Shown here piece after piece: positions 1 to 28,695 of a DNA stretch of 64,000 nucleotides (position 1 is the first letter of the stretch; each line of letters opens with the position of its first letter). The DNA is taken from assembly GCF_030384885.1 (NCBI RefSeq), contig NZ_CP128613.1; one strand, 5' to 3'. The position numbers and the translations under genes are program-made. A model generated the notes under the pieces. That model saw only the letters and a program-made list of their open reading frames with translations. It had not been told where the DNA came from and did no database searches. Source of the stretch: Escherichia coli (GTDB lineage Bacteria; Pseudomonadota; Gammaproteobacteria; Enterobacterales; Enterobacteriaceae).

Positions 1-35
1 AATGATACTTAAATAAATTTCATCAGTAAATCATT

Positions 36-54
36 GCCATAGATAATCATTGGA
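36..54 (+). promoter_or_regulatory. Fur-box-like site upstream of yddA (core GATAATCATT at 42-51)
   Basis: Sequence ATAGATAATCATTGGATGG resembles the Fur consensus GATAATGATAATCATTATC; sits about 25-40 nt upstream of the yddA ATG; a further AATGATA half-site is at 1-7. Confidence 0.35.
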
Positions 55-75
55 TGGCACAATCAATTTCCGCTA

Positions 76-1761
76 ATGATAACCATTCCCATTACGTTTT
101 GTATGTTGATAGCAAAGTATCTCTGTCTGCTGAAGCCCTTTTGGCTGCGTAAGAATAATAAAACTTCAGTGTTGTTAATCATTATTATCCTCGCCATGAT
201 CCTTGGCGTGGTTAAAATTCAGGTCTGGTTAAACGACTGGAATAATGATTTTTTCAATGCGCTAAGCCAGAAAGAAACTGATAAGCTTTGGCAGCTTATC
301 CTTTGGTTCCCTGCCCTGCTGGGGATCTTTGTATTAATATCCGTAAACAAAACGTGGCTAATTAAACTACTGACTATTCGCTGGCGCGAATGGTTAACGG
401 ATTACTACCTTAATCGCTGGTTTGCAGATAAAAACTACTACTTCACGCAGATCTACGGCGAGCATAAAAATACAGATAACCCTGACCAACGTATCGCTGA
501 AGACATTCTCTTACTGATCAGCAAAACGCTCAGCCTTTCATTTGGTTTCATCCAGTCACTGAGCATGCTGATCACCTTTACCGTTATTCTTTGGCAAAGC
601 GCGGGTACGCTCTCATTCACTGTTGGTGAAACTGAATGGAGTATCCAGGGGTATATGGTCTATACCGTCGTGCTCATTGTGATCGGTGGAACTTTATTTA
701 CCCATAAGGTTGGTAAACGTATTCGTCCACTTAATGTGGAAAAACAACGTAGCGAAGCGACATTTCGAACTAATCTTGTGCAGCATAATAAGCAGGCAGA
801 ACTGATTGCGCTAAGCAATGCTGAGTCTCTACAACGCCAGGAGTTGAGCGAAAATTTTCATACCATTAAAGAGAACTGGCATCGTTTAATGAATCGTCAG
901 CGGTGGCTTGATTACTGGCAGAATATTTATTCGCGCTCGCTTAGCGTTCTTCCCTACTTTCTGTTATTGCCGCAGTTTATTAGCGGACAGATCAATCTGG
1001 GCGGACTGATGAAATCACGCCAGGCATTTATGCTGGTATCGAACAATTTAAGCTGGTTTATTTATAAATATGATGAACTTGCTGAACTGGCTGCGGTTAT
1101 CGATCGCTTGTATGAGTTCCATCAACTCACCGAACAGCGCCCTACGAATAAGCCTAAAAATTGCCAACATGCGGTACAAGTGGCTGACGCGAGTATTCGT
1201 ACTCCTGATAATAAGATCATATTAGAGAACCTGAACTTTCATGTTTCGCCAGGCAAATGGCTATTGCTGAAAGGTTACTCTGGTGCGGGAAAAACCACAC
1301 TGCTTAAAACATTATCCCACTGCTGGCCGTGGTTTAAAGGTGATATTTCTTCTCCTGCTGACAGTTGGTATGTGTCACAAACACCGTTAATCAAAACCGG
1401 CTTACTGAAAGAGATTATTTGTAAAGCACTTCCCCTGTCCGTAGACGATAAATCGTTGAGCGAAGTACTGCATCAGGTTGGTCTGGGGAAATTGGCTGCG
1501 CGTATTCATGATCACGATCGCTGGGGAGATATTCTTTCCAGCGGCGAAAAACAACGTATCGCCCTGGCTCGATTAATTTTACGACGTCCGAAATGGATAT
1601 TTCTTGACGAAACTACCTCTCATCTTGAGGAACAAGAGGCTATCCGCTTACTGCGTTTAGTGCGAGAACAACTCCCCTCAAGCGGCGTCATTATGGTCAC
1701 ACATCAACCTGGTGTCTGGAGCCTGGCTGATGATATTTGCGACATTAGCGCGGTTTTATAA
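76..1761 (+). CDS. yddA: ABC transporter, fused permease/ATPase (561 aa)
   Basis: Full-length ORF; Walker A GYSGAGKTT, ABC signature SSGEKQR and Walker B WIFLDE in the C-terminal half; hydrophobic N-terminal half; matches remembered E. coli YddA. Confidence 0.9.
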   Translation: MITIPITFCMLIAKYLCLLKPFWLRKNNKTSVLLIIIILAMILGVVKIQVWLNDWNNDFFNALSQKETDKLWQLILWFPALLGIFVLISVNKTWLIKLLTIRWREWLTDYYLNRWFADKNYYFTQIYGEHKNTDNPDQRIAEDILLLISKTLSLSFGFIQSLSMLITFTVILWQSAGTLSFTVGETEWSIQGYMVYTVVLIVIGGTLFTHKVGKRIRPLNVEKQRSEATFRTNLVQHNKQAELIALSNAESLQRQELSENFHTIKENWHRLMNRQRWLDYWQNIYSRSLSVLPYFLLLPQFISGQINLGGLMKSRQAFMLVSNNLSWFIYKYDELAELAAVIDRLYEFHQLTEQRPTNKPKNCQHAVQVADASIRTPDNKIILENLNFHVSPGKWLLLKGYSGAGKTTLLKTLSHCWPWFKGDISSPADSWYVSQTPLIKTGLLKEIICKALPLSVDDKSLSEVLHQVGLGKLAARIHDHDRWGDILSSGEKQRIALARLILRRPKWIFLDETTSHLEEQEAIRLLRLVREQLPSSGVIMVTHQPGVWSLADDICDISAVL

Positions 1762-1798
1762 AAACAATAAAAGCCCTGCTGTACGGAGATAAAAATAA

Positions 1799-4171
1799 AT
1801 GAAGCGAGTTCTTATTCCTGGCGTCATTTTATGTGGCGCTGATGTGGCGCAGGCTGTCGATGACAAAAATAAGTACATGCCTGTTTTTGAAGAGATGACG
1901 GTCCATGCGCCTGTCCCTGTGCCTGTAAACGGGAACACGCATTACACCAGTGAAAGTATAGAGCGCCTACCGACCGGGAATGGCAATATCAGCGATCTAC
2001 TGAAAACCAACCCCGCGGTGCGCATGGATACAACGCAAAGTACTTCGTTGAACCTGGGAGATATTCGCCCGGAGAAAATCTCTATTCACGGTGCATCGCC
2101 CTATCAGAATGCCTATCTGATTGACGGTATAAGTGCAACTAACAACTTGAACCCGGCGAATGAGTCCGATGCCAGTAGTGCAACCAATATTAGCGGGATG
2201 TCACAGGGGTATTATCTGGATGTCAGCTTACTGGACAATGTGACACTTTATGACAGTTTTGTGCCGGTTGAATTTGGCCGCTTCAATGGCGGGGTAATTG
2301 ACGCAAAGATCAAACGTTTCAATGCTGATGATAGTAGCGTGAAACTGGGTTATCGTACTACGCGGTCGGACTGGTTAACATCGCATCTCGATGAGAATAA
2401 CAAAAGCGCATTTAATCAAGGTTCTTCAGGAAGTACTTATTACTCTCCAGATTTTAAAAAGAACTTTTATACTTTGGCGTTTAATCAGGATCTCGCCGAT
2501 AACTTTGGCGTTACCGCCGGTTTATCCCGTCGCCAGTCTGATATTACCCGCGCGGATTATGTTTCGAATGACGGTATTGTCGCTGGTCGGGCACAGTATA
2601 AAAACGTTATCGATACTGCATTGAGCAAATTTACGTGGTTTGCCAGCGATCGTTTTACCCACGACTTAACCTTAAAATATACCGGCTCCAGTCGTGATTA
2701 TAATACCAGCACCTTCCCGGAGTCTGATCGCGAAATGGGTAATAAATCCTATGGTCTGGCATGGGATATGGATACGCAGTTCGCGTGGGCCAAACTGCGT
2801 ACCACGGTTGGTTGGGATCATATTAGTGATTATACCCGTCACGACCATGACATCTGGTTCACCGAACTTTCATGTACATATGGTGATATTTCAGGGCGTT
2901 GCACCCGTGGCGGATTAGGACACATTTCCCAGGCTGTAGATAATTACACCTTCAAAACACGCCTTGACTGGCAAAAATTCGCCGTGGGTAATGTTTCGCA
3001 TCAACCCTACTTCGGCGCGGAATACATCTATTCCGATGCATGGACTGAACGCCATAACCAGTCTGAATCCTATGTGATTAATGCTGCCGGAAAGAAAACT
3101 AACCATACCATTTACTATAAAGGTAAAGGCAGCCTGGGAATAGACAATTACACGCTGTATATGGCGGATCGCATTAACTGGCGTAATGTGTCGTTAATGC
3201 CCGGCGTGCGGTATGACTATGATAACTATCTGTCAAACCACAATATCTCCCCGCGCTTTATGACGGAATGGGATATTTTTGCTGATCAAACCTCAATGAT
3301 TACCGCAGGTTATAACCGTTACTATGGCGGGAATATTCTTGATATGGGATTACGTGATATCCGCAATAGCTGGACGGAATCGGTATCAGGCAATAAAACC
3401 CTGACGCGCTATCAGGATTTGAAAACGCCTTATAACGATGAACTGGCAATGGGATTGCAGCAAAAAATCGGTAAGAACGTTATTGCGCGCGCAAACTATG
3501 TTTACCGTGAAGCGCATGATCAAATCAGCAAAAGCAGTCGTACCGACAGCGCGACTAAAACCACCATTACTGAATATAACAACGACGGTAAAACCAAAAC
3601 GCATTCGTTCAACCTCAGTTTTGAACTGGCCGAACCCCTGCATATCAGCCAGGTAGATATTAACCCGCAAATTGTCTTTAGCTATATCAAGAGCAAGGGC
3701 AACTTGTCGTTAAACAATGGTTATGAGGAGAGCAATACCGGTGATAACCGGGTGGTTTATAACGGTAATCTGGTCTCTTACGATAGCGTTCCAGTGGCGG
3801 ATTTTAATAATCCACTAAAGATCTCCTTAAACATGGATTTCACGCATCAACCGAGCGGGTTGGTGTGGGCGAATACGCTGGCCTGGCAAGAAGCGCGTAA
3901 AGCTCGCATTATCCTGGGTAAGACGAATGCGCAATACATCAGCGAATATTCAGATTACAAGCAGTATGTTGACGAAAAACTGGATAGCAGCCTGACCTGG
4001 GACACCCGCTTGTCCTGGACGCCACAATTTCTGAAACAACAAAACCTGACGATCAGTGCCGATATTCTCAATGTACTGGATAGCAAAACCGCTGTTGATA
4101 CAACGAATACCGGCGTGGCGACCTACGCCAGTGGCCGTACTTTCTGGCTTGATGTCAGCATGAAATTTTAA
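1799..4171 (+). CDS. yddB: TonB-dependent receptor-like outer membrane protein (790 aa)
   Basis: N-terminal signal peptide ending AQA; C-terminal aromatic residue (F) typical of beta-barrels; position between yddA and pqqL. Confidence 0.88.
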   Translation: MKRVLIPGVILCGADVAQAVDDKNKYMPVFEEMTVHAPVPVPVNGNTHYTSESIERLPTGNGNISDLLKTNPAVRMDTTQSTSLNLGDIRPEKISIHGASPYQNAYLIDGISATNNLNPANESDASSATNISGMSQGYYLDVSLLDNVTLYDSFVPVEFGRFNGGVIDAKIKRFNADDSSVKLGYRTTRSDWLTSHLDENNKSAFNQGSSGSTYYSPDFKKNFYTLAFNQDLADNFGVTAGLSRRQSDITRADYVSNDGIVAGRAQYKNVIDTALSKFTWFASDRFTHDLTLKYTGSSRDYNTSTFPESDREMGNKSYGLAWDMDTQFAWAKLRTTVGWDHISDYTRHDHDIWFTELSCTYGDISGRCTRGGLGHISQAVDNYTFKTRLDWQKFAVGNVSHQPYFGAEYIYSDAWTERHNQSESYVINAAGKKTNHTIYYKGKGSLGIDNYTLYMADRINWRNVSLMPGVRYDYDNYLSNHNISPRFMTEWDIFADQTSMITAGYNRYYGGNILDMGLRDIRNSWTESVSGNKTLTRYQDLKTPYNDELAMGLQQKIGKNVIARANYVYREAHDQISKSSRTDSATKTTITEYNNDGKTKTHSFNLSFELAEPLHISQVDINPQIVFSYIKSKGNLSLNNGYEESNTGDNRVVYNGNLVSYDSVPVADFNNPLKISLNMDFTHQPSGLVWANTLAWQEARKARIILGKTNAQYISEYSDYKQYVDEKLDSSLTWDTRLSWTPQFLKQQNLTISADILNVLDSKTAVDTTNTGVATYASGRTFWLDVSMKF

Positions 4172-4215
4172 TAGTTCGGATTTTACTTAACCGGGTAAAT
4201 TCGCCCGGTTTTCGC

Positions 4216-7011
4216 ATGGAGATAATTATGAGAAACCTCTGTTTCTTACTGACGTTAATGGCAACTCTGTTGCTCCCCGGGCGACTGATTGCCGCCGCCT
4301 TACCGCAGGATGAAAAGTTAATTACCGGGCAACTGGACAATGGCTTGCGATATATGATTTATCCGCATGCTCAACCTAAGGATCAGGTAAATTTATGGCT
4401 GCAAATTCATACCGGTTCATTGCAGGAAGAAGACAATGAGCGCGGCGTGGCTCATTTTGTAGAACATATGATGTTTAACGGCACAAAAACATGGCCGGGT
4501 AATAAAGTCATCGAAACATTTGAGTCAATGGGCCTGCGTTTTGGTCGCGATGTTAATGCCTATACCAGCTATGACGAAACGGTGTATCAGGTGAGTTTGC
4601 CGACTACGCAGAAACAAAATCTGCAACAAGTGATGGCAATCTTCAGTGAATGGAGTAATGCCGCAACCTTTGAAAAACTCGAAGTAGACGCTGAACGTGG
4701 CGTAATTACTGAGGAATGGCGTGCCCATCAGGATGCGAAATGGCGCACCTCTCAGGCGCGCCGCCCTTTCCTGCTGGCAAATACCCGTAATTTAGAGCGT
4801 GAACCTATCGGCCTGATGGATACTGTCGCCACGGTCACACCGGCACAATTGCGCCAATTTTATCAACGCTGGTATCAACCAAATAATATGACCTTTATCG
4901 TGGTCGGCGATATTGACAGTAAAGAAGCGCTGGCGCTGATTAAGGATAATTTAAGTAAGCTTCCGGCTAACAAAGCAGCTGAAAATCGCGTCTGGCCGAC
5001 AAAAGCCGAAAACCACCTGCGCTTTAATATCATTAATGATAAAGAAAACCGGGTGAACGGCATCGCACTCTATTATCGCCTGCCAATGGTGCAAGTGAGC
5101 GATGAGCAAAGCTTTATCGAACAAGCTGAATGGAGCATGTTGGTTCAGCTGTTCAATCAGCGTCTGCAGGAACGCATACAGTCGGGCGAGTTGAAGACTA
5201 TTTCTGGCGGCACTGCGCGCAGCGTTAGAATTGCACCCGATTATCAGTCGCTGTTTTTCCGTGTAAATGCACGAGACGATAATATGCAGGATGCTGCGAA
5301 TGCATTAATGGCAGAGTTGGCAACTATTGATCAGCATGGTTTTTCTGCTGAAGAACTCGATGATGTCAAATCTACCCGTCTCACCTGGCTGAAAAATGCG
5401 GTTGATCAGCAAGCTGAACGTGATTTACGTATGCTGACCAGTCGCCTGGCATCCAGCTCATTAAATAATACGCCGTTCTTGTCGCCGGAAGAGACATATC
5501 AACTTTCGAAACGTCTGTGGCAGCAAATTACCGTGCAAAGTCTGGCGGAAAAATGGCAGCAGCTAAGAAAGAACCAGGACGCATTTTGGGAGCAAATGGT
5601 GAATAACGAGGTTGCAGCCAACAAAGCATTATCTCCTGCGGCTATCCTGGCGCTGGAAAAAGAGTACGCCAACAAAAAGCTGGCAGCTTACATCTTCCCT
5701 GGCAGAAATTTATCGTTAACAGTAGACGCTGACCCACAGGCGGAAATTAGCAGTAAAGAAACACTGGCTGAGAATCTGACATCATTAACACTTTCTAATG
5801 GTGCCAGGGTTATTCTGGCAAAATCAGCGGGTGAAGAGCAAAAGCTACAAATTATTGCCGTATCTAATAAAGGTGATTTAAGTTTCCCTGCGCAGCAAAA
5901 ATCACTTATCGCGCTGGCAAATAAAGCGGTGAGTGGCAGCGGCGTTGGTGATCTCTCCTCTTCCAGCCTGAAACGCTGGAGTGCGGAAAACTCGGTAACC
6001 ATGAGCAGCAAAGTCAGTGGGCTGAATACGTTGCTCTCCGTGAGCGCGCGGGCTAATAATCCTGAACCTGGTTTCCAGTTGATTAACCAGCGAATCACTC
6101 ACAGCACGATTAATGACAATATTTGGGCATCGCTACAAAATGCTCAAATTCAGGCGTTGAAAACGCTAGACCAACGTCCAGCAGAGAAATTCGCCCAGCA
6201 GATGTATGAGAAGCGCTATGCTGATGATCGTACGAAATTACTGCAAGAAAAACAGATTGCACAATTTACTGCCGCAGACGCGCTGGCAGCCGATCGCCAG
6301 TTATTTTCATCTCCAGCGGATATCACGTTTGTCGTTGTCGGTAATGTCGCAGAAGACAAACTTCTGCCGTTAATTACGCGTTACTTAGGATCAATAAAAC
6401 ACTCTGATTCGCCATTAGCCGCAGGTAAACCATTAACTCGCGCGACGGACAACGCATCGATTACTGTAGAAGAACAAAATGAACCTGTGGCACAGGTTTC
6501 ACTGTGGAATCGTTATGATTCCCGGACACCTATTAATCTGGCGACACGTATGGCGCTGGATGCCTTTAACGTTGCCCTGGCTAAAGATCTGCGCATTAAT
6601 ATTCGTGAACAGGCATCTGGGGCATACAGCGTTTCTTCTCGCCTCTCGGTTGATCCTCAGGCCAAAGATATCACCCATTTGCTGGCTTTTACTTGTCAAC
6701 CAGAACGGCATGAAGAACTGTTAGCGTTAGCGAATGAAGTGATGGTTAAGCGTCTGGCTAAAGGGATCAGTAAGCAAGAACTGAACGAATACCAGCAAAA
6801 CGTTCAGCGCAGCCTCGATATCCAACAGCGTAGCGTTCAACAATTAGCGAACACCATTGTAAATAGTCTTATTCAATATGACGATCCTGCCACATGGACT
6901 GCGCAGGAGCAATTATTGAAACAAATGACGGTAGATAATGTTAACACTACGGTTAAACAATATCTTTCTCATCCGGTGAATACCTTTACCGGAGTATTAC
7001 TACCAAAATAA
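4216..7011 (+). CDS. pqqL: Periplasmic M16-family zinc protease (931 aa)
   Basis: Signal peptide; inverted zinc motif HFVEH at the N-terminus; length and sequence match remembered PqqL. Confidence 0.9.
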   Translation: MEIIMRNLCFLLTLMATLLLPGRLIAAALPQDEKLITGQLDNGLRYMIYPHAQPKDQVNLWLQIHTGSLQEEDNERGVAHFVEHMMFNGTKTWPGNKVIETFESMGLRFGRDVNAYTSYDETVYQVSLPTTQKQNLQQVMAIFSEWSNAATFEKLEVDAERGVITEEWRAHQDAKWRTSQARRPFLLANTRNLEREPIGLMDTVATVTPAQLRQFYQRWYQPNNMTFIVVGDIDSKEALALIKDNLSKLPANKAAENRVWPTKAENHLRFNIINDKENRVNGIALYYRLPMVQVSDEQSFIEQAEWSMLVQLFNQRLQERIQSGELKTISGGTARSVRIAPDYQSLFFRVNARDDNMQDAANALMAELATIDQHGFSAEELDDVKSTRLTWLKNAVDQQAERDLRMLTSRLASSSLNNTPFLSPEETYQLSKRLWQQITVQSLAEKWQQLRKNQDAFWEQMVNNEVAANKALSPAAILALEKEYANKKLAAYIFPGRNLSLTVDADPQAEISSKETLAENLTSLTLSNGARVILAKSAGEEQKLQIIAVSNKGDLSFPAQQKSLIALANKAVSGSGVGDLSSSSLKRWSAENSVTMSSKVSGLNTLLSVSARANNPEPGFQLINQRITHSTINDNIWASLQNAQIQALKTLDQRPAEKFAQQMYEKRYADDRTKLLQEKQIAQFTAADALAADRQLFSSPADITFVVVGNVAEDKLLPLITRYLGSIKHSDSPLAAGKPLTRATDNASITVEEQNEPVAQVSLWNRYDSRTPINLATRMALDAFNVALAKDLRINIREQASGAYSVSSRLSVDPQAKDITHLLAFTCQPERHEELLALANEVMVKRLAKGISKQELNEYQQNVQRSLDIQQRSVQQLANTIVNSLIQYDDPATWTAQEQLLKQMTVDNVNTTVKQYLSHPVNTFTGVLLPK

Positions 7012-7015
7012 TGAC

Positions 7016-7049
7016 GTCCCCCGTCAACATATCGTTGGCGGGGGTTTTA
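7016..7049 (+). terminator. Rho-independent terminator after pqqL
   Basis: GC stem CCCCCGTCAAC / GTTGGCGGGGG with loop ATATC, followed by TTTT. Confidence 0.6.
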
Positions 7050-21386: not shown

Positions 21387-22305
21387 CACGTTATTAACGT
21401 TACGCGACGTCCATATCAATTTCCCGGCCCGAAAAAACTGGCTTGGTAAAACTACGGAACATGTTCATGCCATCAATGGTATTGATTTACAGATCCGTCG
21501 TGGTGAAACCTTAGGGATCGTCGGTGAGTCAGGCTGCGGCAAAAGCACCCTCGCGCAGCTTTTAATGGGTATGCTGCAACCGAGCCACGGGCAGTACATC
21601 CGTTCAGGATCACAACGCATTATGCAGATGGTGTTTCAGGACCCGCTCTCTTCGCTTAATCCGCGCTTACCGGTGTGGCGCATCATCACGGAACCGCTCT
21701 GGATTGCTAAGCGTAGTAGTGAACAACAGCGGCGAGCGTTGGCAGAGGAGCTGGCTGTGCAGGTGGGTATTCGTCCGGAGTATCTCGACCGCTTGCCTCA
21801 TGCGTTCTCAGGCGGGCAGCGGCAACGTATCGCCATTGCCAGAGCACTCTCTTCGCAGCCTGACGTGATTGTGCTTGATGAGCCCACCTCGGCGCTGGAT
21901 ATCTCCGTGCAGGCGCAGATCCTCAATTTACTGGTAACGCTACAGGAAAATCGCGGGCTGACTTATGTGCTGATTTCACACAATGTCTCGGTGATACGTC
22001 ATATGAGCGATCGGGTGGCGGTGATGTATCTCGGACAGATTGTTGAACTAGGAGACGCGCAACAGGTGCTGACAGCTCCGGCACATCCATACACCAGATT
22101 ATTGCTGGATTCCCTCCCCGCCATTGATAAACCGCTGGAGGAAGAATGGGCATTGCGTAAAACGGAACTACCAGGAAACCGCACGTTGCCGCCGGGCTGT
22201 TTTTTCCGTGAACGTTGCCCTCTGGCAACCCACGGATGTGAAGTCCGGCAATCATTAACAATAAGGGAGGACGGACGTGAGATCCGGTGCTGGCGGGCGC
22301 TGTAG
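21379..22305 (+). CDS. ddpF: ABC transporter ATP-binding protein (308 aa), GTG start
   Basis: Walker A GESGCGKST, signature FSGGQRQR; begins VSDTLLTLRD at GTG 21379, overlapping the ddpD end; ORF-track start 21325 is over-extended. Confidence 0.85.
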   Translation: MSDTLLTLRDVHINFPARKNWLGKTTEHVHAINGIDLQIRRGETLGIVGESGCGKSTLAQLLMGMLQPSHGQYIRSGSQRIMQMVFQDPLSSLNPRLPVWRIITEPLWIAKRSSEQQRRALAEELAVQVGIRPEYLDRLPHAFSGGQRQRIAIARALSSQPDVIVLDEPTSALDISVQAQILNLLVTLQENRGLTYVLISHNVSVIRHMSDRVAVMYLGQIVELGDAQQVLTAPAHPYTRLLLDSLPAIDKPLEEEWALRKTELPGNRTLPPGCFFRERCPLATHGCEVRQSLTIREDGREIRCWRAL

Positions 22306-22342
22306 AGACGCGGCATCCGGCTATTGCATGTCTGTGGAAACG

Positions 22343-23233
22343 TTATGCGTCATAGGTTTTTTTTAACGTTTCCATCAACGCTTGCGCCGCAGTAGAAAGC
22401 TTATGGTGTGACGAACGCAGAACGCCTACCCGTCGCTCAATCACCGGATTATCCAGTTCCAGACACACTGCGCCCAATTCGCTCATCTGCCTGCGGCACA
22501 GTGCAGGCACAGCGCTGCCCCCCAAACCGTTTGCCACCAGCCGCCCAACCGTAACCAGTTGATGGCTTTCCAGCGCCACTTCCAGTTGCGTTCCACTTTG
22601 TGCCAATTCCTCTTCCAGCATCAACCTGACGGCTGACGGTCGCTGGAGGGTGATAAAATCGAGCGTCAGCAAATCCCGCCAGCTCACGCGTTGCCGATTT
22701 GCCAGTCGGGAATCGGCTGGAACAATAGCAACAAACCGATCCACGCCCAGCGGGATAAAATGCAAATGGCCGCAATAGTCAGGTTCAAAGGCAATCCCCA
22801 TCTCCACGCGCCCTTCACTCACCATTTCGATTACCAGCTCATTCACCACATCGTGCACAGTGACGTTAATCCCTGAATAACAATCGCGGAAGGTTTTCAG
22901 CACCGGAGGCAAAACGTTGGCCGCAAATGACGGCATCGCTGCCACTGAGACTTTGCCCCGCCTGAGCGTGAATCGCTGACGCATGGCCTCTTCGGTGTTA
23001 TCCCAGTCAGCCAGCAAAGGCCGTGCCATCGACAATAGCGTTTCCCCCTCCTGGGTTAACGTCACTTTTCGCGTAGTACGCAGCAGTAAAGCGCCCCCTA
23101 AGGCATCTTCCAGTCCTTTAATGGCAAGACTTAGCGCAGGCTGCGACATATTCAGCCGTTCACTGGCATGGGCAAAGTTCAGAGTGTGAGCTACCGCTAA
23201 AAACGCGCGTAACTGTTTGATGCTCATTTTCAT
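22343..23233 (-). CDS. LysR-family transcriptional regulator (296 aa)
   Basis: N-terminal helix-turn-helix of LysR type (MKMSIKQLRAFLAVAHTLNFAHASERL...) plus a substrate-binding domain; transcribed divergently from the CoA-transferase operon. Confidence 0.85.
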   Translation of the reverse strand: MKMSIKQLRAFLAVAHTLNFAHASERLNMSQPALSLAIKGLEDALGGALLLRTTRKVTLTQEGETLLSMARPLLADWDNTEEAMRQRFTLRRGKVSVAAMPSFAANVLPPVLKTFRDCYSGINVTVHDVVNELVIEMVSEGRVEMGIAFEPDYCGHLHFIPLGVDRFVAIVPADSRLANRQRVSWRDLLTLDFITLQRPSAVRLMLEEELAQSGTQLEVALESHQLVTVGRLVANGLGGSAVPALCRRQMSELGAVCLELDNPVIERRVGVLRSSHHKLSTAAQALMETLKKTYDA

Positions 23234-23374
23234 CTGGTATTCCGTTAACTTGTTGAATACATTTAATTAACATTATATTTATAAATAATACAAATGAATG
23301 AGTCACAAATTTAAAATTAACAAATCATTTTTTGCCCTTAATGATGTTGGAAAGGACAACTGGAGGGCAACTGT

Positions 23375-24082
23375 ATGGCTGGGCTGGATAAACGGGTCGC
23401 TACGTATCACGAGGCGCTTGAAGGACTTACCAATGAGATGACGATTCTGGCGGGAGGTTTTGGCCTGTGCGGCATCCCGGAGAATCTGATTGCTGAAGTT
23501 CGCCACCGTGGAGTAACCGCATTGACGGTGGTTTCCAATAACTGTGGCGTAGACGGTTTTGGACTGGGTGTACTGCTGGAAACCCGACAGATCCGTAAAG
23601 TCATCGCTTCTTATGTTGGCGAAAATGCTTTGTTTGAAAAACAGGTGCTTAACGGCGAACTGGAGGCGATTCTCACACCACAAGGAACCCTGGCAGAACA
23701 ACTGCGCGCAGGCGGCGCGGGCATCCCGGCGTTCTTTACTGCCACCGGTTACGGTACACCCGTTGCCGAAGGGAAAGAAGTCCGCGAATTCAACGGTCGC
23801 CCGTACATAATGGAACAGGCTATCACCGGTGATTTTGCCCTGGTCAAAGGCTGGAAAGCCGACTGGTACGGCAACGTGATTTATCGTCATACCGCGCAAA
23901 ACTTCAACCCACTGATGGCGGCTGCCGGAAAAATCACCGTGGTGGAAGTGGAAGAGATTGTGCCGCCTGGTGAACTTGATCCTGCCGCAATCCATACCCC
24001 AGGGATTTTTGTTAATCGCGTCATTCAGGGGCAATTTGAAAAACGCATTGAACAACGCACCCTTAGCCGCAAAGGAGCCTGA
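23375..24082 (+). CDS. 3-oxoacid/acetoacetate CoA-transferase subunit A (235 aa)
   Basis: Family resemblance to AtoD/ScoA ([27 protein letters not shown]); GGAGGG ribosome-binding site. Confidence 0.85.
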
Positions 24083-24084
24083 CC

Positions 24085-24741
24085 ATGTTAACCCGTGAAC
24101 AAATGGCGATGCGAGTCGCCCGCGAATTGCGCGATGGCTATTACGTCAATCTCGGCATTGGTATCCCGACCCTGGTGGCAAACTACATTCCTGACGGGAT
24201 GGATGTGATGTTGCAGTCAGAAAACGGTTTGCTGGGAATGGGCGCATTTCCTACGGAAGATGAACTGGACGCCGACATGATTAACGCCGGTAAACAAACC
24301 GTTACCGCACGGAAAGGCGCGGCAATTTTCGATTCGGCGCAATCTTTCGCCATGATCCGTGGCGGCCATGTGGATCTGACTGTGCTTGGCGCATTTGAAG
24401 TGGATGTGAATGGCAACATTGCCTCATGGATGATCCCCGGCAAGATGGTTAAAGGCATGGGCGGTGCCATGGATCTGGTTGCCGGTGCCGAGAATATTAT
24501 TGTGGTAATGACCCACGCCTCCAAATCCGGCGAATCCAAACTGCTTCCCGACTGTACCCTGCCATTGACTGGCGTCGGCTGCATCAAACGCGTCTTAACC
24601 GACCTTGCTCTGCTGGAAATTGCTGACGGCGCTTTCATTCTGCGCGAGCGCGCGCCGGGAATCAGCGTTGCGGAAATCGTCGCCAAAACCGCCGGTAAGT
24701 TGTTTGTGCCGGAACATGTCCCGGAAATGCAATTCAACTGA
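24085..24741 (+). CDS. 3-oxoacid/acetoacetate CoA-transferase subunit B (218 aa)
   Basis: AtoA/ScoB-like; starts 3 nt after the subunit A stop. Confidence 0.85.
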   Translation: MLTREQMAMRVARELRDGYYVNLGIGIPTLVANYIPDGMDVMLQSENGLLGMGAFPTEDELDADMINAGKQTVTARKGAAIFDSAQSFAMIRGGHVDLTVLGAFEVDVNGNIASWMIPGKMVKGMGGAMDLVAGAENIIVVMTHASKSGESKLLPDCTLPLTGVGCIKRVLTDLALLEIADGAFILRERAPGISVAEIVAKTAGKLFVPEHVPEMQFN

Positions 24742-24750
24742 GGAATCACC

Positions 24751-25956
24751 ATGCAGGACGTTGTTATTGTTGCCGCTACGCGCACGCCGATTGGCTGTTT
24801 TCATGGCGCTCTCGCACCACTTTCTGCGGTTGATCTCGGCGCTGCCACCATCCGTTCATTGCTGGAGAAAACCGCACTTGCAGCAGAACAGATCGATGAA
24901 GTGATTTTTGGTCAGGTCCTGACTGCCGGAAGCGGACAAAACCCAGCACGGCAATCGGCGCTCAAAGCCGGGTTAAGCCACGATACACCCGCCGTTACCA
25001 TCAACCTGGTATGTGGTTCCGGTTTGAAAGCCGTACACCAGGCCGTGCAGGCGATCCGCTGTGGTGATGCACAGATCATTATCGCAGGTGGCCAGGAAAG
25101 CATGAGCAACGCGCCCTATTTTATTGATGGCGCGCGGGCAGGTTTACGCCTCGGGCATACCAGCATGAAAGACAGCGTGGTTCATGACGGACTATGGGAT
25201 GCTTTCAATGATTACCACATGGGCATTACTGCAGAAAACCTGGCGCAAAAATATGCCATCAGTCGCGAGCGCCAGGACACATTCGCGCTACGTTCTCAGC
25301 AAAAAGCCGCTGCCGCAATGGAAGCCTGGCGCTTTGCAGACGAAATTACTCCGGTCAGCGTACCACAAGGTAAAAAACCACCACGCTGGGTAAATACCGA
25401 CGAACAACCACGTTCCGGGACGCAACTGGAAAAACTGGCGCAACTGAAACCGGCCTTTCTTCCGGGGGCAGGAAGCGTCACCGCGGGAAATGCCTCTTCC
25501 ATCAATGATGGTGCCGCCGCAGTCATGTTAATGCGCGCCAGCAAAGCTGCCGAACTTGGCCTCTCTGTGCTGGCTCGGGTGGCCGGTTATGCCGTTTCTG
25601 GCGTCGATCCTGCCTTTATGGGCATCGGTCCGGTCGTCGCTACCCGCGAATGTCTTAAGCGTTGCGGATGGACGCTGGAAGATATTGATCTTATTGAAGC
25701 AAACGAAGCTTTCGCAGCGCAGGCGCTGGCCGTTGGCGACGAACTGAACTGGGATAACGACAAAGTGAATGTTAACGGCGGCGCAATCGCACTTGGGCAT
25801 CCTATTGGCGCTTCTGGTTGCCGCATTCTGGTCACTCTCATTTATGAAATGGCGCGACGTAATGCGCAAAAAGGGCTGGCGACGCTGTGCGTCGGTGGCG
25901 GTCAGGGCGTGGCGCTGACGCTGGAAAGAACCACAGGAGAACACCATGCAAACTGA
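24751..25956 (+). CDS. Acetyl-CoA acetyltransferase (thiolase II, 401 aa)
   Basis: Thiolase signatures, including [17 protein letters not shown] and a C-terminal GGGQG. Confidence 0.88.
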
Positions 25957-26869
25957 ACAATTTGCGGTACTGGGCGCCGGATTGATGGGCGTGGGGATTG
26001 CCACTCATTTCGCCCGCTTTGGTCATGATATCTGGCTGTACGATACCGAGCAGAGCCGGATTGCTGAAATCCCCGTAGTTGCAGCCGGGATTCTTGATGA
26101 ACTGATTAGCTGCGAACAGTTTACTGCCTCGGGAAAAGAGAATGTGCTTAAACGCCTTCACGGCACGACCTCTCTTGCTGACATCGCCGACTCGCAACTA
26201 CTGATTGAGGCGATCCCGGAGCGGCTTGAACTAAAACACGCATTATATGCCGAGCTTGAAACACTTATTTCTCCTGAGGCCATTGTCGCCAGCAATACCA
26301 GCGGTCTGCCGCCCGATGATCTGGCAGCGAAGATGCGCTACCCGCAACGACTGCTGATCGCCCATTTCTGGCATCCGCCGCACTTCATTCCACTTGTAGA
26401 GATTGTCCCCGGCAGCGTTACCGAGCCAAAGCATTTGCACTGGCTGCAACACTTGCTTGTGTCACTGCAACTGGAAGCTGTGTTGCTGGATCGCGCTGCG
26501 CCAGGATTTGTCGGCAACCGTCTGCAATTTGCACTGTTGCGTGAAGCCCTGCATATCGTAAAAAGCGGCATCGCCAGTGCCGAAGTAGTCGATCAGGTCA
26601 TGCGCGCCTCGCTTGGGCGACGTTATGCCATGGTCGGCCCGCTGGAGGCCGCCGACATGACCGGACTTTCGACGGTGCAGGATATTTGTCGCCATCTTCT
26701 CCCTGAACTGGCGACTGGCAGCGACATGATGTCGTTAGTTGCCGAAAAAGTGGAACGTGGAGACATCGGCGTACGTAGCGGTCAGGGATTTTACCGCTGG
26801 GATGAATCGCGGAAGCAGTACATCCAGCAGCGTCGGGAACATCAGCTTCGCTTCGCCCTGAAACCCTAA
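25946..26869 (+). CDS. 3-hydroxyacyl-CoA (3-hydroxybutyryl-CoA) dehydrogenase (307 aa)
   Basis: N-terminal NAD-binding Rossmann motif [12 protein letters not shown]; overlaps the thiolase gene by 11 nt; AGGAGA ribosome-binding site. Confidence 0.8.
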
Positions 26870-26914
26870 CTTCTCTCGCTGTACCCACTATAACAACGAT
26901 ATTGAGGAGTCCCG

Positions 26915-28306
26915 ATGAGTGTATTAATCGCCCTTGCCGCGCTTGGGCTGCTAATGCTGGCAGCCTATCGCGGATACAGCGTTATCCTTTTTGCCCCCAT
27001 CGCGGCATTAGGCGCTGTTCTTGTCACCGATCCGGGGGCTGTTGGCCCAGCATTTACCGGTCTGTTCATGGAAAAAATGGTCGGCTTCGTGAAATTGTAC
27101 TTCCCGGTGTTTCTGCTCGGGGCCGTGTTCGGAAAACTGATTGAGCTTTCAGGATTTTCTCGTTCGATTGTCGCTGCTGCAATCAACATTCTCGGGCGGC
27201 GGCATGCGATTCCGGTGATTGTGCTGGTATGCGCATTACTCACCTATGGCGGCGTGTCGCTGTTTGTGGTGGCATTTGCCGTTTATCCGTTCGCGGCTGA
27301 ATTGTTCCGACAGAGTAATATCCCCAAACGGCTTATACCGGCAACGGTGGCCCTCGGAGCATTCTCTTTTACTATGGACGCTCTGCCCGGCACACCTCAA
27401 ATCCAGAACATTATTCCCACCAGTTTCTTTGGCACCAACGCCTGGGCCGCGCCGTGGCTGGGGCTCATTGGTTCACTGTTTATCATTGCCGTCGGGCTTA
27501 TCTATCTGGAGCGACAGCGTCGTAAAGCGCATGCAAAAAATGAAGGTTACGGCACAGAGTTACTTAATGAACCTGAAACGCCAGACAACATCAATTTGCC
27601 GAATCCACTCATTGCGATTTCACCGTTGATTCTGGTGGGGCTGTTGAACTTGTTGTTTACCTGGTGGATCCCTGTTTGGTACGGTGCGAGTCACCAACTG
27701 GAGTTGCCAGGACTTGCCGCCCCGATCACTACAGATGTCGCCAAAATCACCGCTATCTGGGCCGTTGAAGCAGCGCTCATTGCCGGAATTTTGCTGGTGG
27801 TGATTTTCGGATATCGCAATATTCATGGAAGACTGGCAGAAGGAAGCCGTACTGCGGTGGGTGGCGCAATTCTGGCCGCGATGAACACCGCCTCAGAATA
27901 TGGCTTCGGTGCGGTTATCGCCGCTCTGCCCGGTTTTCTGGTGCTCTCAAAGGCGCTGGCTGCCATTCCAGATCCATTACTCAACGAAGCCATCAGCATC
28001 ACCACGCTTGCCGGCATTACCGGTTCAGCGTCCGGCGGGATGAGTATTGCTCTTGCGGCTATGTCCGACACTTTTATTGCCGCTGCGCACGCTGCCAATA
28101 TTCCACTGGAAGTTTTTCACCGCGTGGCATCTATGGCCAGTGGCGGCATGGATACATTGCCCCATAACGGCGCAGTGATCACTCTGCTGGCAATTACTGG
28201 GCTGAGTCACCGTCAGGCTTACGGCGGTATCTTCGCAATTACGATCATTAAAAGTCTGGCCGTGCTGTTTATCATCGGCGTGTACTACACCACCGGCATT
28301 GTCTAA
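26915..28306 (+). CDS. Polytopic permease, GntP-like (463 aa)
   Basis: About 12 predicted transmembrane segments; overall resemblance to the GntP/hydroxy-acid:H+ symporter family; substrate unknown. Confidence 0.6.
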   Translation: MSVLIALAALGLLMLAAYRGYSVILFAPIAALGAVLVTDPGAVGPAFTGLFMEKMVGFVKLYFPVFLLGAVFGKLIELSGFSRSIVAAAINILGRRHAIPVIVLVCALLTYGGVSLFVVAFAVYPFAAELFRQSNIPKRLIPATVALGAFSFTMDALPGTPQIQNIIPTSFFGTNAWAAPWLGLIGSLFIIAVGLIYLERQRRKAHAKNEGYGTELLNEPETPDNINLPNPLIAISPLILVGLLNLLFTWWIPVWYGASHQLELPGLAAPITTDVAKITAIWAVEAALIAGILLVVIFGYRNIHGRLAEGSRTAVGGAILAAMNTASEYGFGAVIAALPGFLVLSKALAAIPDPLLNEAISITTLAGITGSASGGMSIALAAMSDTFIAAAHAANIPLEVFHRVASMASGGMDTLPHNGAVITLLAITGLSHRQAYGGIFAITIIKSLAVLFIIGVYYTTGIV

Positions 28307-28317
28307 GGAGAATCATC

Positions 28318-28695
28318 ATGAATTTACAAGGTAAAACTGCGCTTGTGACGGGGTCCTCCAGCGGTATTGGACTCGGTATTGCTCAGACACTGGCAAAAGC
28401 CGGCGCGCAAGTGATCCTCAACGGCTTCGGTGATGTTGACGCGGCAATCAATGGAGTTTCTCGTGTGGGTAAAACGCCTGGCTATCATGAGGCAGACCTC
28501 AGCGATGAATCGCAAATTGTCAGCATGATGGCCTACGCACGGAGGGAATTTGGCGGTGTGGACATTCTGGTGAATAACGCCGGGATCCAATTGGAGCTGA
28601 CCAAATGGGTGGAAGCTTCTGATAACGACATCCTCAGTGATATCTACCAGCAAACGATCAATTATGTGGTCAGTGGCCAGCACCCTACGCTTTAA
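28318..28695 (+). pseudogene. Chimeric ORF: N-terminal 92 codons of a short-chain dehydrogenase fused in frame to the last 33 codons of bdm
   Basis: N-terminus has the SDR cofactor motif TGSSSGIGLG and NNAG; from about 28594 the protein reads ELTKWVEASDNDILSDIYQQTINYVVSGQHPTL, identical to the remembered Bdm C-terminus; total length 125 aa against about 250 aa for an SDR. Confidence 0.7.

Follow-up and report, generated by a model that had tools for sequence, protein, structure and literature searches.

The ferredoxin-uptake (Fus) system of Pectobacterium and Dickeya is encoded by a cluster, FusB–FusA–FusC–FusD, that starts with a strong Fur box and combines a TonB homologue (FusB), an outer-membrane transporter, an adjacent protease and, in last position, an ABC transporter. 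Published structures of YddB and PqqL show homology to this system. Rv1819c, SbmA/BacA and ABCD4 are importers with an exporter-type fold, and the clustered Fur operators of fecI, fhuF and entC place a 19-bp inverted-repeat box and a second box offset by 6 bp at the promoter. Here we examined a 64-kb stretch of Escherichia coli DNA (the window), of which positions 1–7011 are the E. coli yddA–yddB–pqqL operon (b1496–b1494 in K-12). Repression of this operon by Fur, its co-transcription as a unit and its resemblance to Fus are already known, having been published between 2003 and 2019. Its genes are as follows.

76–1761, + strand: yddA, half-size ABC transporter whose membrane domain is of the SbmA/BacA type (open reading frame as in the K-12 annotation and PGAP)
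1799–4171, + strand: yddB, FusA-like TonB-dependent outer-membrane transporter with a Plug domain (Pfam)
4216–7011, + strand: pqqL, FusC-like zinc protease of family M16 in the periplasm (also annotated with a start at 4228)

These open reading frames confirm the three-gene set that had been proposed from the sequence, with intergenic gaps of 37 nt (yddA–yddB) and 44 nt (yddB–pqqL); the PGAP start of pqqL at 4228 gives a second gap of 56 nt. The operon is flanked by ydeM upstream and gadB downstream. Across 4,6xx complete E. coli genomes, its coding DNA shows 95–99% identity. The operon shares the Fur box, promoter hexamers and gene order with that of K-12 and departs from it by strain-level substitutions only. 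Away from the promoter, the upstream intergenic region has diverged to an unusual degree, with at least 99% identity in just 5–6 genomes. The whole intergenic region measures 287 nt, of which the window takes in the 75 nt next to yddA, so the original prediction was based on one quarter of it.

Pfam searches recovered the Plug domain in YddB and Peptidase_M16 and M16_C in PqqL, in agreement with the TonB-dependent receptor-like protein and M16 protease of the original prediction. YddB is the same protein as in PDB entry 6OFR and matches FusA (4ZGV) at 1.2e-80. PqqL is the protein in 6OFS and 6OFT, with a mature chain from residue 27, and matches FusC (6B03, 6B05 and 6BRS) at ~1e-57. YddA combines an ABC_membrane_2/SbmA_BacA membrane domain (PF06472, PF05992) with one ABC_tran ATPase domain, as in the group of Rv1819c, SbmA/BacA and ABCD4 (E-values of 2e-34, 7e-44 and 1e-18 for the PF05992/PF06472 membrane domain and the ABC ATPase). 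Its best PDB match is Rv1819c (6TQE; 4e-68 over residues 36–552); unlike Rv1819c, YddA is encoded in one module together with a TonB-dependent transporter and a protease. Judged by its sequence relationship to a fusBACD-type locus (L035), YddA is the homologue of FusD. Because of its SbmA/BacA-type domain, an importer (Rv1819c) as its closest solved relative and its homology to FusD, we infer that YddA is probably an importer rather than an exporter. Of the 'ABC exporter' proposed earlier, the ABC transporter thus holds, and the direction is probably wrong.

With its FusA-like transporter, adjacent FusC-like protease, FusD-like ABC transporter and a strong Fur box heading the cluster, the E. 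coli module parallels Fus. It differs in that the ABC gene comes first in E. coli and last in Fus, in lacking a dedicated TonB homologue (FusB) and in its substrate, which is not plant ferredoxin (PMC6793856). A literature search found no substrate identified after 2019, and deletion of yddB or pqqL caused no growth defect in iron-limited LB (PMC6793856). We compared 8 homologous modules with YddA identities from 83 to 37% and mostly unrelated genomic contexts (L033 and L036 have the same upstream genes). In the fusBACD-type locus L035, the YddA homologue P0046 (37% identity) is fourth in the order TonB_C, transporter, M16, ABC; no TonB_C gene adjoins the E. coli module, and the seven homologous loci that begin with the ABC gene have none either. 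In 8/8 cases, the best Fur site anywhere in the 10–16 kb locus (18.6–25.1 bits) is found where the module begins.

To locate Fur sites we used a matrix of 23 known E. coli sites, with the yddA site left out, and scanned the whole 64-kb window (63,982 positions). The known sites had leave-one-out scores with a median of 18.1 bits and a minimum of 7.8 bits. We also scanned for promoter consensus hexamers. The following elements lie around the start of yddA.

34–39, + strand: −35-like hexamer TTGCCA of the predicted yddA promoter, from the consensus scan, unchanged across 7 diverse E. coli strains
36–54: weak Fur-like 19-mer GCCATAGATAATCATTGGA, in the −35/−10 spacer, 8.2 bits
55–63, + strand: extended −10 TGgCACAAT of the predicted yddA promoter, with an 18-nt spacer and TG ahead of the hexamer
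72–96: main Fur operator, a pair of overlapping 19-mers (72–90 and 78–96) offset by 6 bp
168–192: Fur-like cluster within the coding sequence of yddA, made up of three 19-mers offset by 3 bp, the best at 174–192 with 13.5 bits

The predicted promoter matches the consensus at 9/12 positions. In the orthologous module with 83% YddA identity, the −35 hexamer reads TTGCAA with unchanged spacing and the extended −10 is identical, though the spacer between the hexamers has diverged. Transcription is predicted from the sequence to start near 70; a literature search found no experimentally mapped yddA transcription start. Chen et al. (PMC2189734) detected no overlap of the Fur cluster with a strong sigma-70 promoter and expected weak repression only.

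The box at 72–90 (GCTAATGATAACCATTCCC) scored 19.1 bits, above the median of the known E. coli sites, and ranked first of the 63,982 positions in the window (simulation P = 0.0008). It agrees with the consensus at 15/19 positions, the sole match that good in the window, begins 8 nt past the conserved, predicted extended −10 and is overlapped by the 78–96 box (11.7 bits). The 83% orthologue conserves it at 18.8 bits. A two-site, 25-bp Fur cluster of 19.6 bits had been predicted at yddA (PMC2189734), and this matches 72–96. The operator shares the box arrangement of fecI, fhuF and entC, and its core, TAATGATAACCATT, is identical to that of the fecI site. Those operators cover the −35/−10 elements; at yddA the strong box instead follows shortly after the −10 and spans the predicted start and leader, and a further cluster sits within the coding sequence at about +100. 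Elsewhere in the window, hits at 58562–58580 (16.2 bits; an AT-rich Rhs tip/immunity region without promoter context, as seen from collinearity with NZ_CP027579) and 61287–61305 (14.5 bits; where the window departs from NZ_CP027579) were considered as further Fur targets and taken as chance.

The K-12/PGAP start of yddA, the ATG at 76, falls inside this Fur box. The true start is probably the ATG at 103, with the K-12-style ATG 27 nt too far upstream; every Fur box contains an ATG, which would then have been mistaken for the start codon in K-12.

The Fur box had originally been placed further upstream, at the decamer GATAATCATT (42–51, + strand), which is enclosed by the 19-mer at 36–54, lies 25 nt upstream of the annotated yddA ATG at 76 and occurs once in the window. 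This decamer includes a perfect GATAAT hexamer and CATT, occupies the classic position for repression between the −35 and −10 elements and, with the whole 36–54 motif, does not vary among 7 diverse E. coli strains. That it is the functional primary operator of the operon is nevertheless very hard to sustain. The decamer turned up in 13/100 shuffles of the window. The 19-mer around it agrees with the Fur consensus at 12/19 positions and ranks 42 of 63,982 in the matrix scan, and a site of equal or better score arose in 38% of composition-matched simulations of the 314-nt AT-rich intergenic region, as expected by chance in promoter DNA so rich in AT. Published ChIP-exo peaks of three strains are centred 30–45 bp downstream of the decamer. 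The 83% lineage has lost the motif, with taactactcacaaagtgg in its place, and retains the promoter hexamers and the 72–90 box. On matrix score, simulations and non-conservation we rejected the decamer as a significant Fur site: the scan bore out a top-ranked box at the start of yddA and moved the real operator ~30 bases downstream of the flagged motif.

At most, GATAATCATT in the promoter spacer is a low-affinity, in-phase auxiliary site. The starts of the 36–54 motif and of 72–90 are exactly 36 bp, or six hexamers, apart, and Fur nucleated at 72–96 might extend upstream in hexamer register over the promoter spacer and so strengthen repression. E. coli Fur footprints typically spread over clusters of sites spaced 3 or 6 bp (PMC2189734), and the MG1655 ChIP-exo peak starts at ~69, at a resolution that allows upstream extension. 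Set against this, the 18 bp between both sites (55–71) contain no Fur-like hexamers and the 36–54 motif is not conserved outside E. coli, and we regard such an auxiliary role as possible but rather unlikely.

We placed published Fur ChIP-exo peaks for MG1655, W3110 and CFT073 on this sequence; the Sakai peak was left out, as its coordinates did not fit NC_002695.2. The peaks map to ~69–96 in MG1655, 81–93 in W3110 and 82–94 in CFT073. A second MG1655 peak (P46) maps to ~176–210. The Fur-like cluster at 168–192 falls in the Ile/Leu-rich codons of the first transmembrane helix of YddA, and its counterpart in the 83% orthologue reaches 8.9 bits only. One could imagine a three-part operator in which the weak site at 36–54 and the intragenic cluster at 168–192 (~+100) each cooperate with the strong 72–96 site through polymerisation, looping or a roadblock, giving a very tight off state in some strains; we think this a shade less probable still than the auxiliary role of 36–54 by itself. 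In wild-type W3110, yddA stands at ~0.3 TPM and is derepressed 120-fold.

The proposal of iron- and Fur-regulated expression is upheld by this Fur-site cluster and by the literature. Fur ChIP or ChIP-exo and delta-fur RNA-seq cover the operon (PMC4676285, PMC10164565, PMC7157518). Loss of fur in MG1655 raised yddA, yddB and pqqL by log2 fold changes of 3.1, 2.9 and 2.3, and over 8 strains the change for yddA was 1.9–6.9, with the highest value in W3110. Derepression was also seen by qPCR in a delta-fur strain (PMC3855560), and PqqL protein, which is periplasmic, is induced by the iron chelator bipyridine in BW25113 (PMC6793856). The single transcript suggested by the short gene junctions has been demonstrated by RT-PCR, which found yddA–yddB–pqqL co-transcribed, with >30-fold induction in urine (PMC3855560). 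Inputs other than Fur have been reported, namely RyhB, oxygen and urine cues, and raise the question of whether the operon is induced mainly by such non-iron, non-Fur signals (urine or serum cues, RyhB, oxygen), with Fur a minor input. The transcript in CFT073 grown in LB was unchanged with dipyridyl or FeCl3 (PMC3855560) and yet rose in urine, and RyhB- and oxygen-dependent differences point the same way. In the CFT073 study, loss of fur did derepress the operon. Against a minor role for Fur stand the 4- to 120-fold delta-fur derepression in 8/9 strains, the chelator induction of PqqL and the top-ranked Fur box in all 8 homologous modules examined, and we judge that reading improbable.

Two hairpins bear on how far transcription from the yddA promoter would extend.

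4189–4210, + strand: small hairpin in the yddB–pqqL gap, 8-bp stem followed by UUUUCG, directly before the pqqL ribosome-binding site
7018–7048, + strand: intrinsic-terminator-like hairpin (CCCCCGUCAAC...GUUGGCGGGGG, then UUUU), before gadB

The hairpin at 7018–7048 folds at −23.9 kcal/mol (z = −4.84), and 0/200 shuffles fold as well. For the one at 4189–4210, a 71-nt stretch folds at −15.9 kcal/mol (z = −1.65) and 14/200 shuffles fold as well, so its significance is doubtful. We rejected it as an internal terminator or attenuator, given this weak z score and the read-through in the published RT-PCR.

Taken together, yddA–yddB–pqqL is in all likelihood a Fus-like 'protease-associated import system' directly repressed by Fur, a reading based on Fur occupancy, delta-fur derepression, co-transcription, protein folds, periplasmic location and Fur-box conservation, each published or tested here. 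When iron is sufficient, Fe2+–Fur dimers would occupy 72–96, just downstream of the extended −10 of the predicted sigma-70 promoter. From the position of the box we infer that Fur there would mask the predicted start (~70) along with the leader's first 25 nt, and so block initiation by occlusion. When iron is scarce Fur would leave, and one mRNA would run over the short gene junctions and end at the 7018–7048 hairpin. YddB would then import a protein, probably an iron-containing one, across the outer membrane, PqqL would cleave it in the periplasm, and YddA, as the FusD homologue, would probably move the released cargo across the inner membrane.

Very little of this is new, and the question of which host or environmental protein is imported is not furthered by spotting a Fur box. 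Small by-products of the analysis are an operator pinned to 72–96, away from the flagged decamer, and the naming of YddA as the FusD counterpart. The yddA start would be a case of gene callers led astray by the ATG of a Fur box, and the strong Fur box emerges as an ancestral feature of the module across distant relatives.

Positions 1–7011 of the window hold the yddA–yddB–pqqL DNA of E. coli, which 4,633 of 5,426 complete genomes carry at 95–99% identity and which is flanked by ydeM and gadB. The window includes 75 nt of DNA upstream of the first open reading frame (ORF) of the set. The ydeM–yddA intergenic region (287 nt) is cut by the window edge, and we took the remainder from L001, the corresponding locus of a 99.9%-identical genome. 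The small annotated ORF yneP (~40 aa; L001 5751–5876, opposite strand) lies upstream of the window and overlaps the ydeM 3' end; its position is the most variable part of the intergenic region.

76–1761, + strand: yddA ORF (Pfam ABC_membrane_2/SbmA_BacA and ABC_tran)
1799–4171, + strand: yddB ORF (Pfam TonB-dependent Plug domain)
4216–7011, + strand: pqqL ORF (Pfam Peptidase_M16 and M16_C)

These ORFs confirm the stated gaps of 37 and 44 nt, and the single transcript proposed for them is borne out by published RT–PCR, which found yddA, yddB and pqqL to be co-transcribed (Subashchandrabose et al. 2013, PMC3855560). With the PGAP start of pqqL at 4228, the second gap becomes 56 nt. Public annotations use both pqqL starts (4216, K-12, 931 aa; 4228, PGAP, 927 aa); GGAG stands immediately 5' of the second ATG, and, numbered on the long form, the mature protein in PDB 6OFS begins with residue 27. 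A small hairpin rich in GC, with UUUUCG after it, lies in the yddB–pqqL gap (4189–4210; statistically weak, z = −1.65); it could contribute to the lower delta-fur RNA-seq fold change of pqqL relative to yddA.

We scored the DNA against a symmetric 19-bp matrix derived from 23 Fur sites of E. coli K-12 that have experimental support, with yddA excluded; these sites were found via the coordinates of Chen et al. 2007 (PMC2189734), followed by iterative refinement. The matrix recovered the consensus GATAATGATAATCATTATC, and known sites scored 7.8 to 21.7 bits on leave-one-out (median 18.1, n = 23). The highest-scoring site of the entire 64-kb window was 72–90, GCTAATGATAACCATTCCC, at 19.1 bits; it is the sole match at 15/19 consensus positions (simulation P = 0.0008). 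Three further Fur-like features surround it.

78–96: second Fur box, offset by 6 bp from 72–90 (11.7 bits)
168–192: Fur-like cluster within the yddA coding region (best 13.5 bits)
~120 nt upstream, outside the window: moderate Fur site (10.3 bits)

The original prediction had rested Fur control on a decamer, GATAATCATT, which occurs once in the window, at 42–51. The 19-mer containing it (36–54) scored 8.2 bits with 12/19 consensus positions, ranking 42 of 63,982. When the AT-rich intergenic region was simulated with a Markov-1 model, 38% of the simulations held a site scoring at least as high. This sequence is not the operator. The 36–54 site starts 36 bp upstream of the start of the main box, and the decamer could serve at most as an auxiliary site in phase with that box. 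The second- and third-ranked sites of the window, 58562–58583 (16.2 bits; AT-rich Rhs tip/immunity DNA) and 61287–61305 (14.5 bits; where the window diverges from the reference strain), are probably chance matches.

The idea of Fur control is right, but it is already known, having been established for two decades. The 72–96 element is the one reported by Chen et al. 2007, who gave two clustered Fur sites for yddA that together span 25 bp, score 19.6 bits and have their centre at +8 relative to the annotated start. The operon belongs to the direct Fur regulon in K-12 and CFT073 (Beauchene et al. 2015, PMC4676285; Banerjee et al. 2020, PMC7157518). Across nine strains studied by ChIP-exo and delta-fur RNA-seq, yddA was regulated in eight, with delta-fur log2 fold changes of 3.06 in MG1655 and 6.93 in W3110 (Gao et al. 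2023, PMC10164565). We placed the ChIP-exo peaks on the sequence at 82–94 (CFT073), 81–93 (W3110) and ~69–96 (MG1655 P47); none of the peaks placed from these three strains is centred on 42–51. A second MG1655 peak maps to ~176–210 and coincides with the 168–192 cluster, where the first transmembrane helix is encoded by Ile/Leu-rich codons; the cluster may have a function or may reflect codon composition. Urine induced the operon more than 30-fold, and it was derepressed in a delta-fur mutant (Subashchandrabose et al. 2013). PqqL, a periplasmic protein, was induced by an iron chelator (Grinter et al. 2019, PMC6793856), whereas dipyridyl in LB gave no response (Subashchandrabose et al. 2013).

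We identified a predicted sigma-70-like promoter consisting of TTGCCA (34–39), an 18-nt spacer and an extended −10, TGgCACAAT (55–63). It would start transcription at ~70, so that the main box would span about +2 to +26. Seven diverse E. coli strains show no variation in the promoter, the decamer or either Fur cluster; their substitutions lie mostly further upstream. More informative is an orthologue with 83% protein identity (L029 and L038), which retains the −35 as TTGCAA, the 18-nt spacing and TGgCACAAT. Its main box, GCTAATGATAATTGTTACC, scores 18.8 bits; its spacer reads taactactcacaaagtgg, and the decamer is thus lost there.

The Fur box has been described as 'overlapping the start codon' (Subashchandrabose et al. 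2013). The K-12/PGAP start of yddA, the ATG at 76, does fall within the box, and the Fur consensus itself includes ATGAT. In the 83% lineage, the equivalent ATG is followed six codons on by an in-frame TAG, and the gene starts at the ATG matching window position 103. Homologues have 2–12 residues, mostly 10–12, ahead of a conserved [KR]PF[WG] motif; E. coli YddA has 19 from M1 and 10 from M10. Three of the four substitutions in codons 2–9 among E. coli strains are non-synonymous, and the Sakai RefSeq record starts yddA at the downstream ATG (552 aa). The gene call of one homologue (L034) likewise starts at an ATG within its own Fur box. By these five lines of evidence, the true start is probably the ATG at 103 (M10), the one at 76 being spurious. 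With a start at 103, the main box is at −31 to −13 and most likely falls within a ~33-nt leader rather than over the start codon. Fe2+–Fur bound at 72–96 would most likely block initiation at the adjoining promoter, and loss of iron would release a single yddA–yddB–pqqL transcript ending at a strong hairpin (7018–7048).

Elsewhere in the window, we noted a group II intron on the − strand (56164–57981; Rfam Intron_gpII 56164–56239 and group-II-D1D4-2 57864–57981) with a 505-aa reverse-transcriptase/maturase ORF (56241–57758) between the two matches and an adjoining ISAs1-family transposase ORF. Within fdnG, an Rfam SECIS_3 match (84 bits; 36682–36740, − strand) corresponds to the signal for selenocysteine insertion that formate dehydrogenase-N is expected to have. 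Collinearity with NZ_CP027579, interrupted by indels of ~1.4 kb near 28,600 and ~2.5 kb near 60,000, pointed to a gene cluster between ddpF and osmC.

~22,300–28,600: LysR regulator, CoA-transferase A/B, thiolase, 3-hydroxyacyl-CoA dehydrogenase, GntP permease and 3-hydroxybutyrate dehydrogenase

This cluster is not known to occur in E. coli K-12.

YddA had been called an ABC exporter. Rv1819c and ABCD4 have an exporter-type fold, yet import hydrophilic cargo. The closest solved relative of YddA is Rv1819c (PDB 6TQE, 4e-68), followed by ABCD1 and ABCD4, so that the assigned direction is likely wrong; by analogy, YddA is probably not an exporter. The solved structures of YddB and PqqL are related to FusA and FusC, respectively, of the Pectobacterium/Dickeya ferredoxin-uptake system (Grinter et al. 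2019); we found no identification of the substrate in the literature after that study. YddB (same family as PDB 6OFR) matched FusA (PDB 4ZGV) at 1e-80, and PqqL (PDB 6OFS and 6OFT) matched FusC at ~1e-57. A 37%-identical YddA homologue is the final gene of a TonB_C–transporter–M16–ABC cluster, the fusBACD arrangement, which makes YddA the counterpart of FusD.

YddA homologues at 83, 57, 52, 52, 51, 50 and 46% identity all stand in modules ordered ABC, TonB-dependent transporter, M16 protease. The genomic contexts of these ABC-first modules are mostly unrelated, two (L033 and L036) having common upstream genes. The 57%-identical module (L030, contig ERR12378274_1129) has a 24-bit Fur box on a plasmid-like contig, and its neighbours (ParA/ParB, Rep3, an integrase and an IS21 helper gene) suggest that this module is mobile. 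In all eight homologous loci, the best Fur site of the whole 10–16-kb locus (18.6–25.1 bits) is found where the module starts, which argues against a chance match in E. coli; judged from these sites, Fur control is apparently ancestral in systems of this kind.
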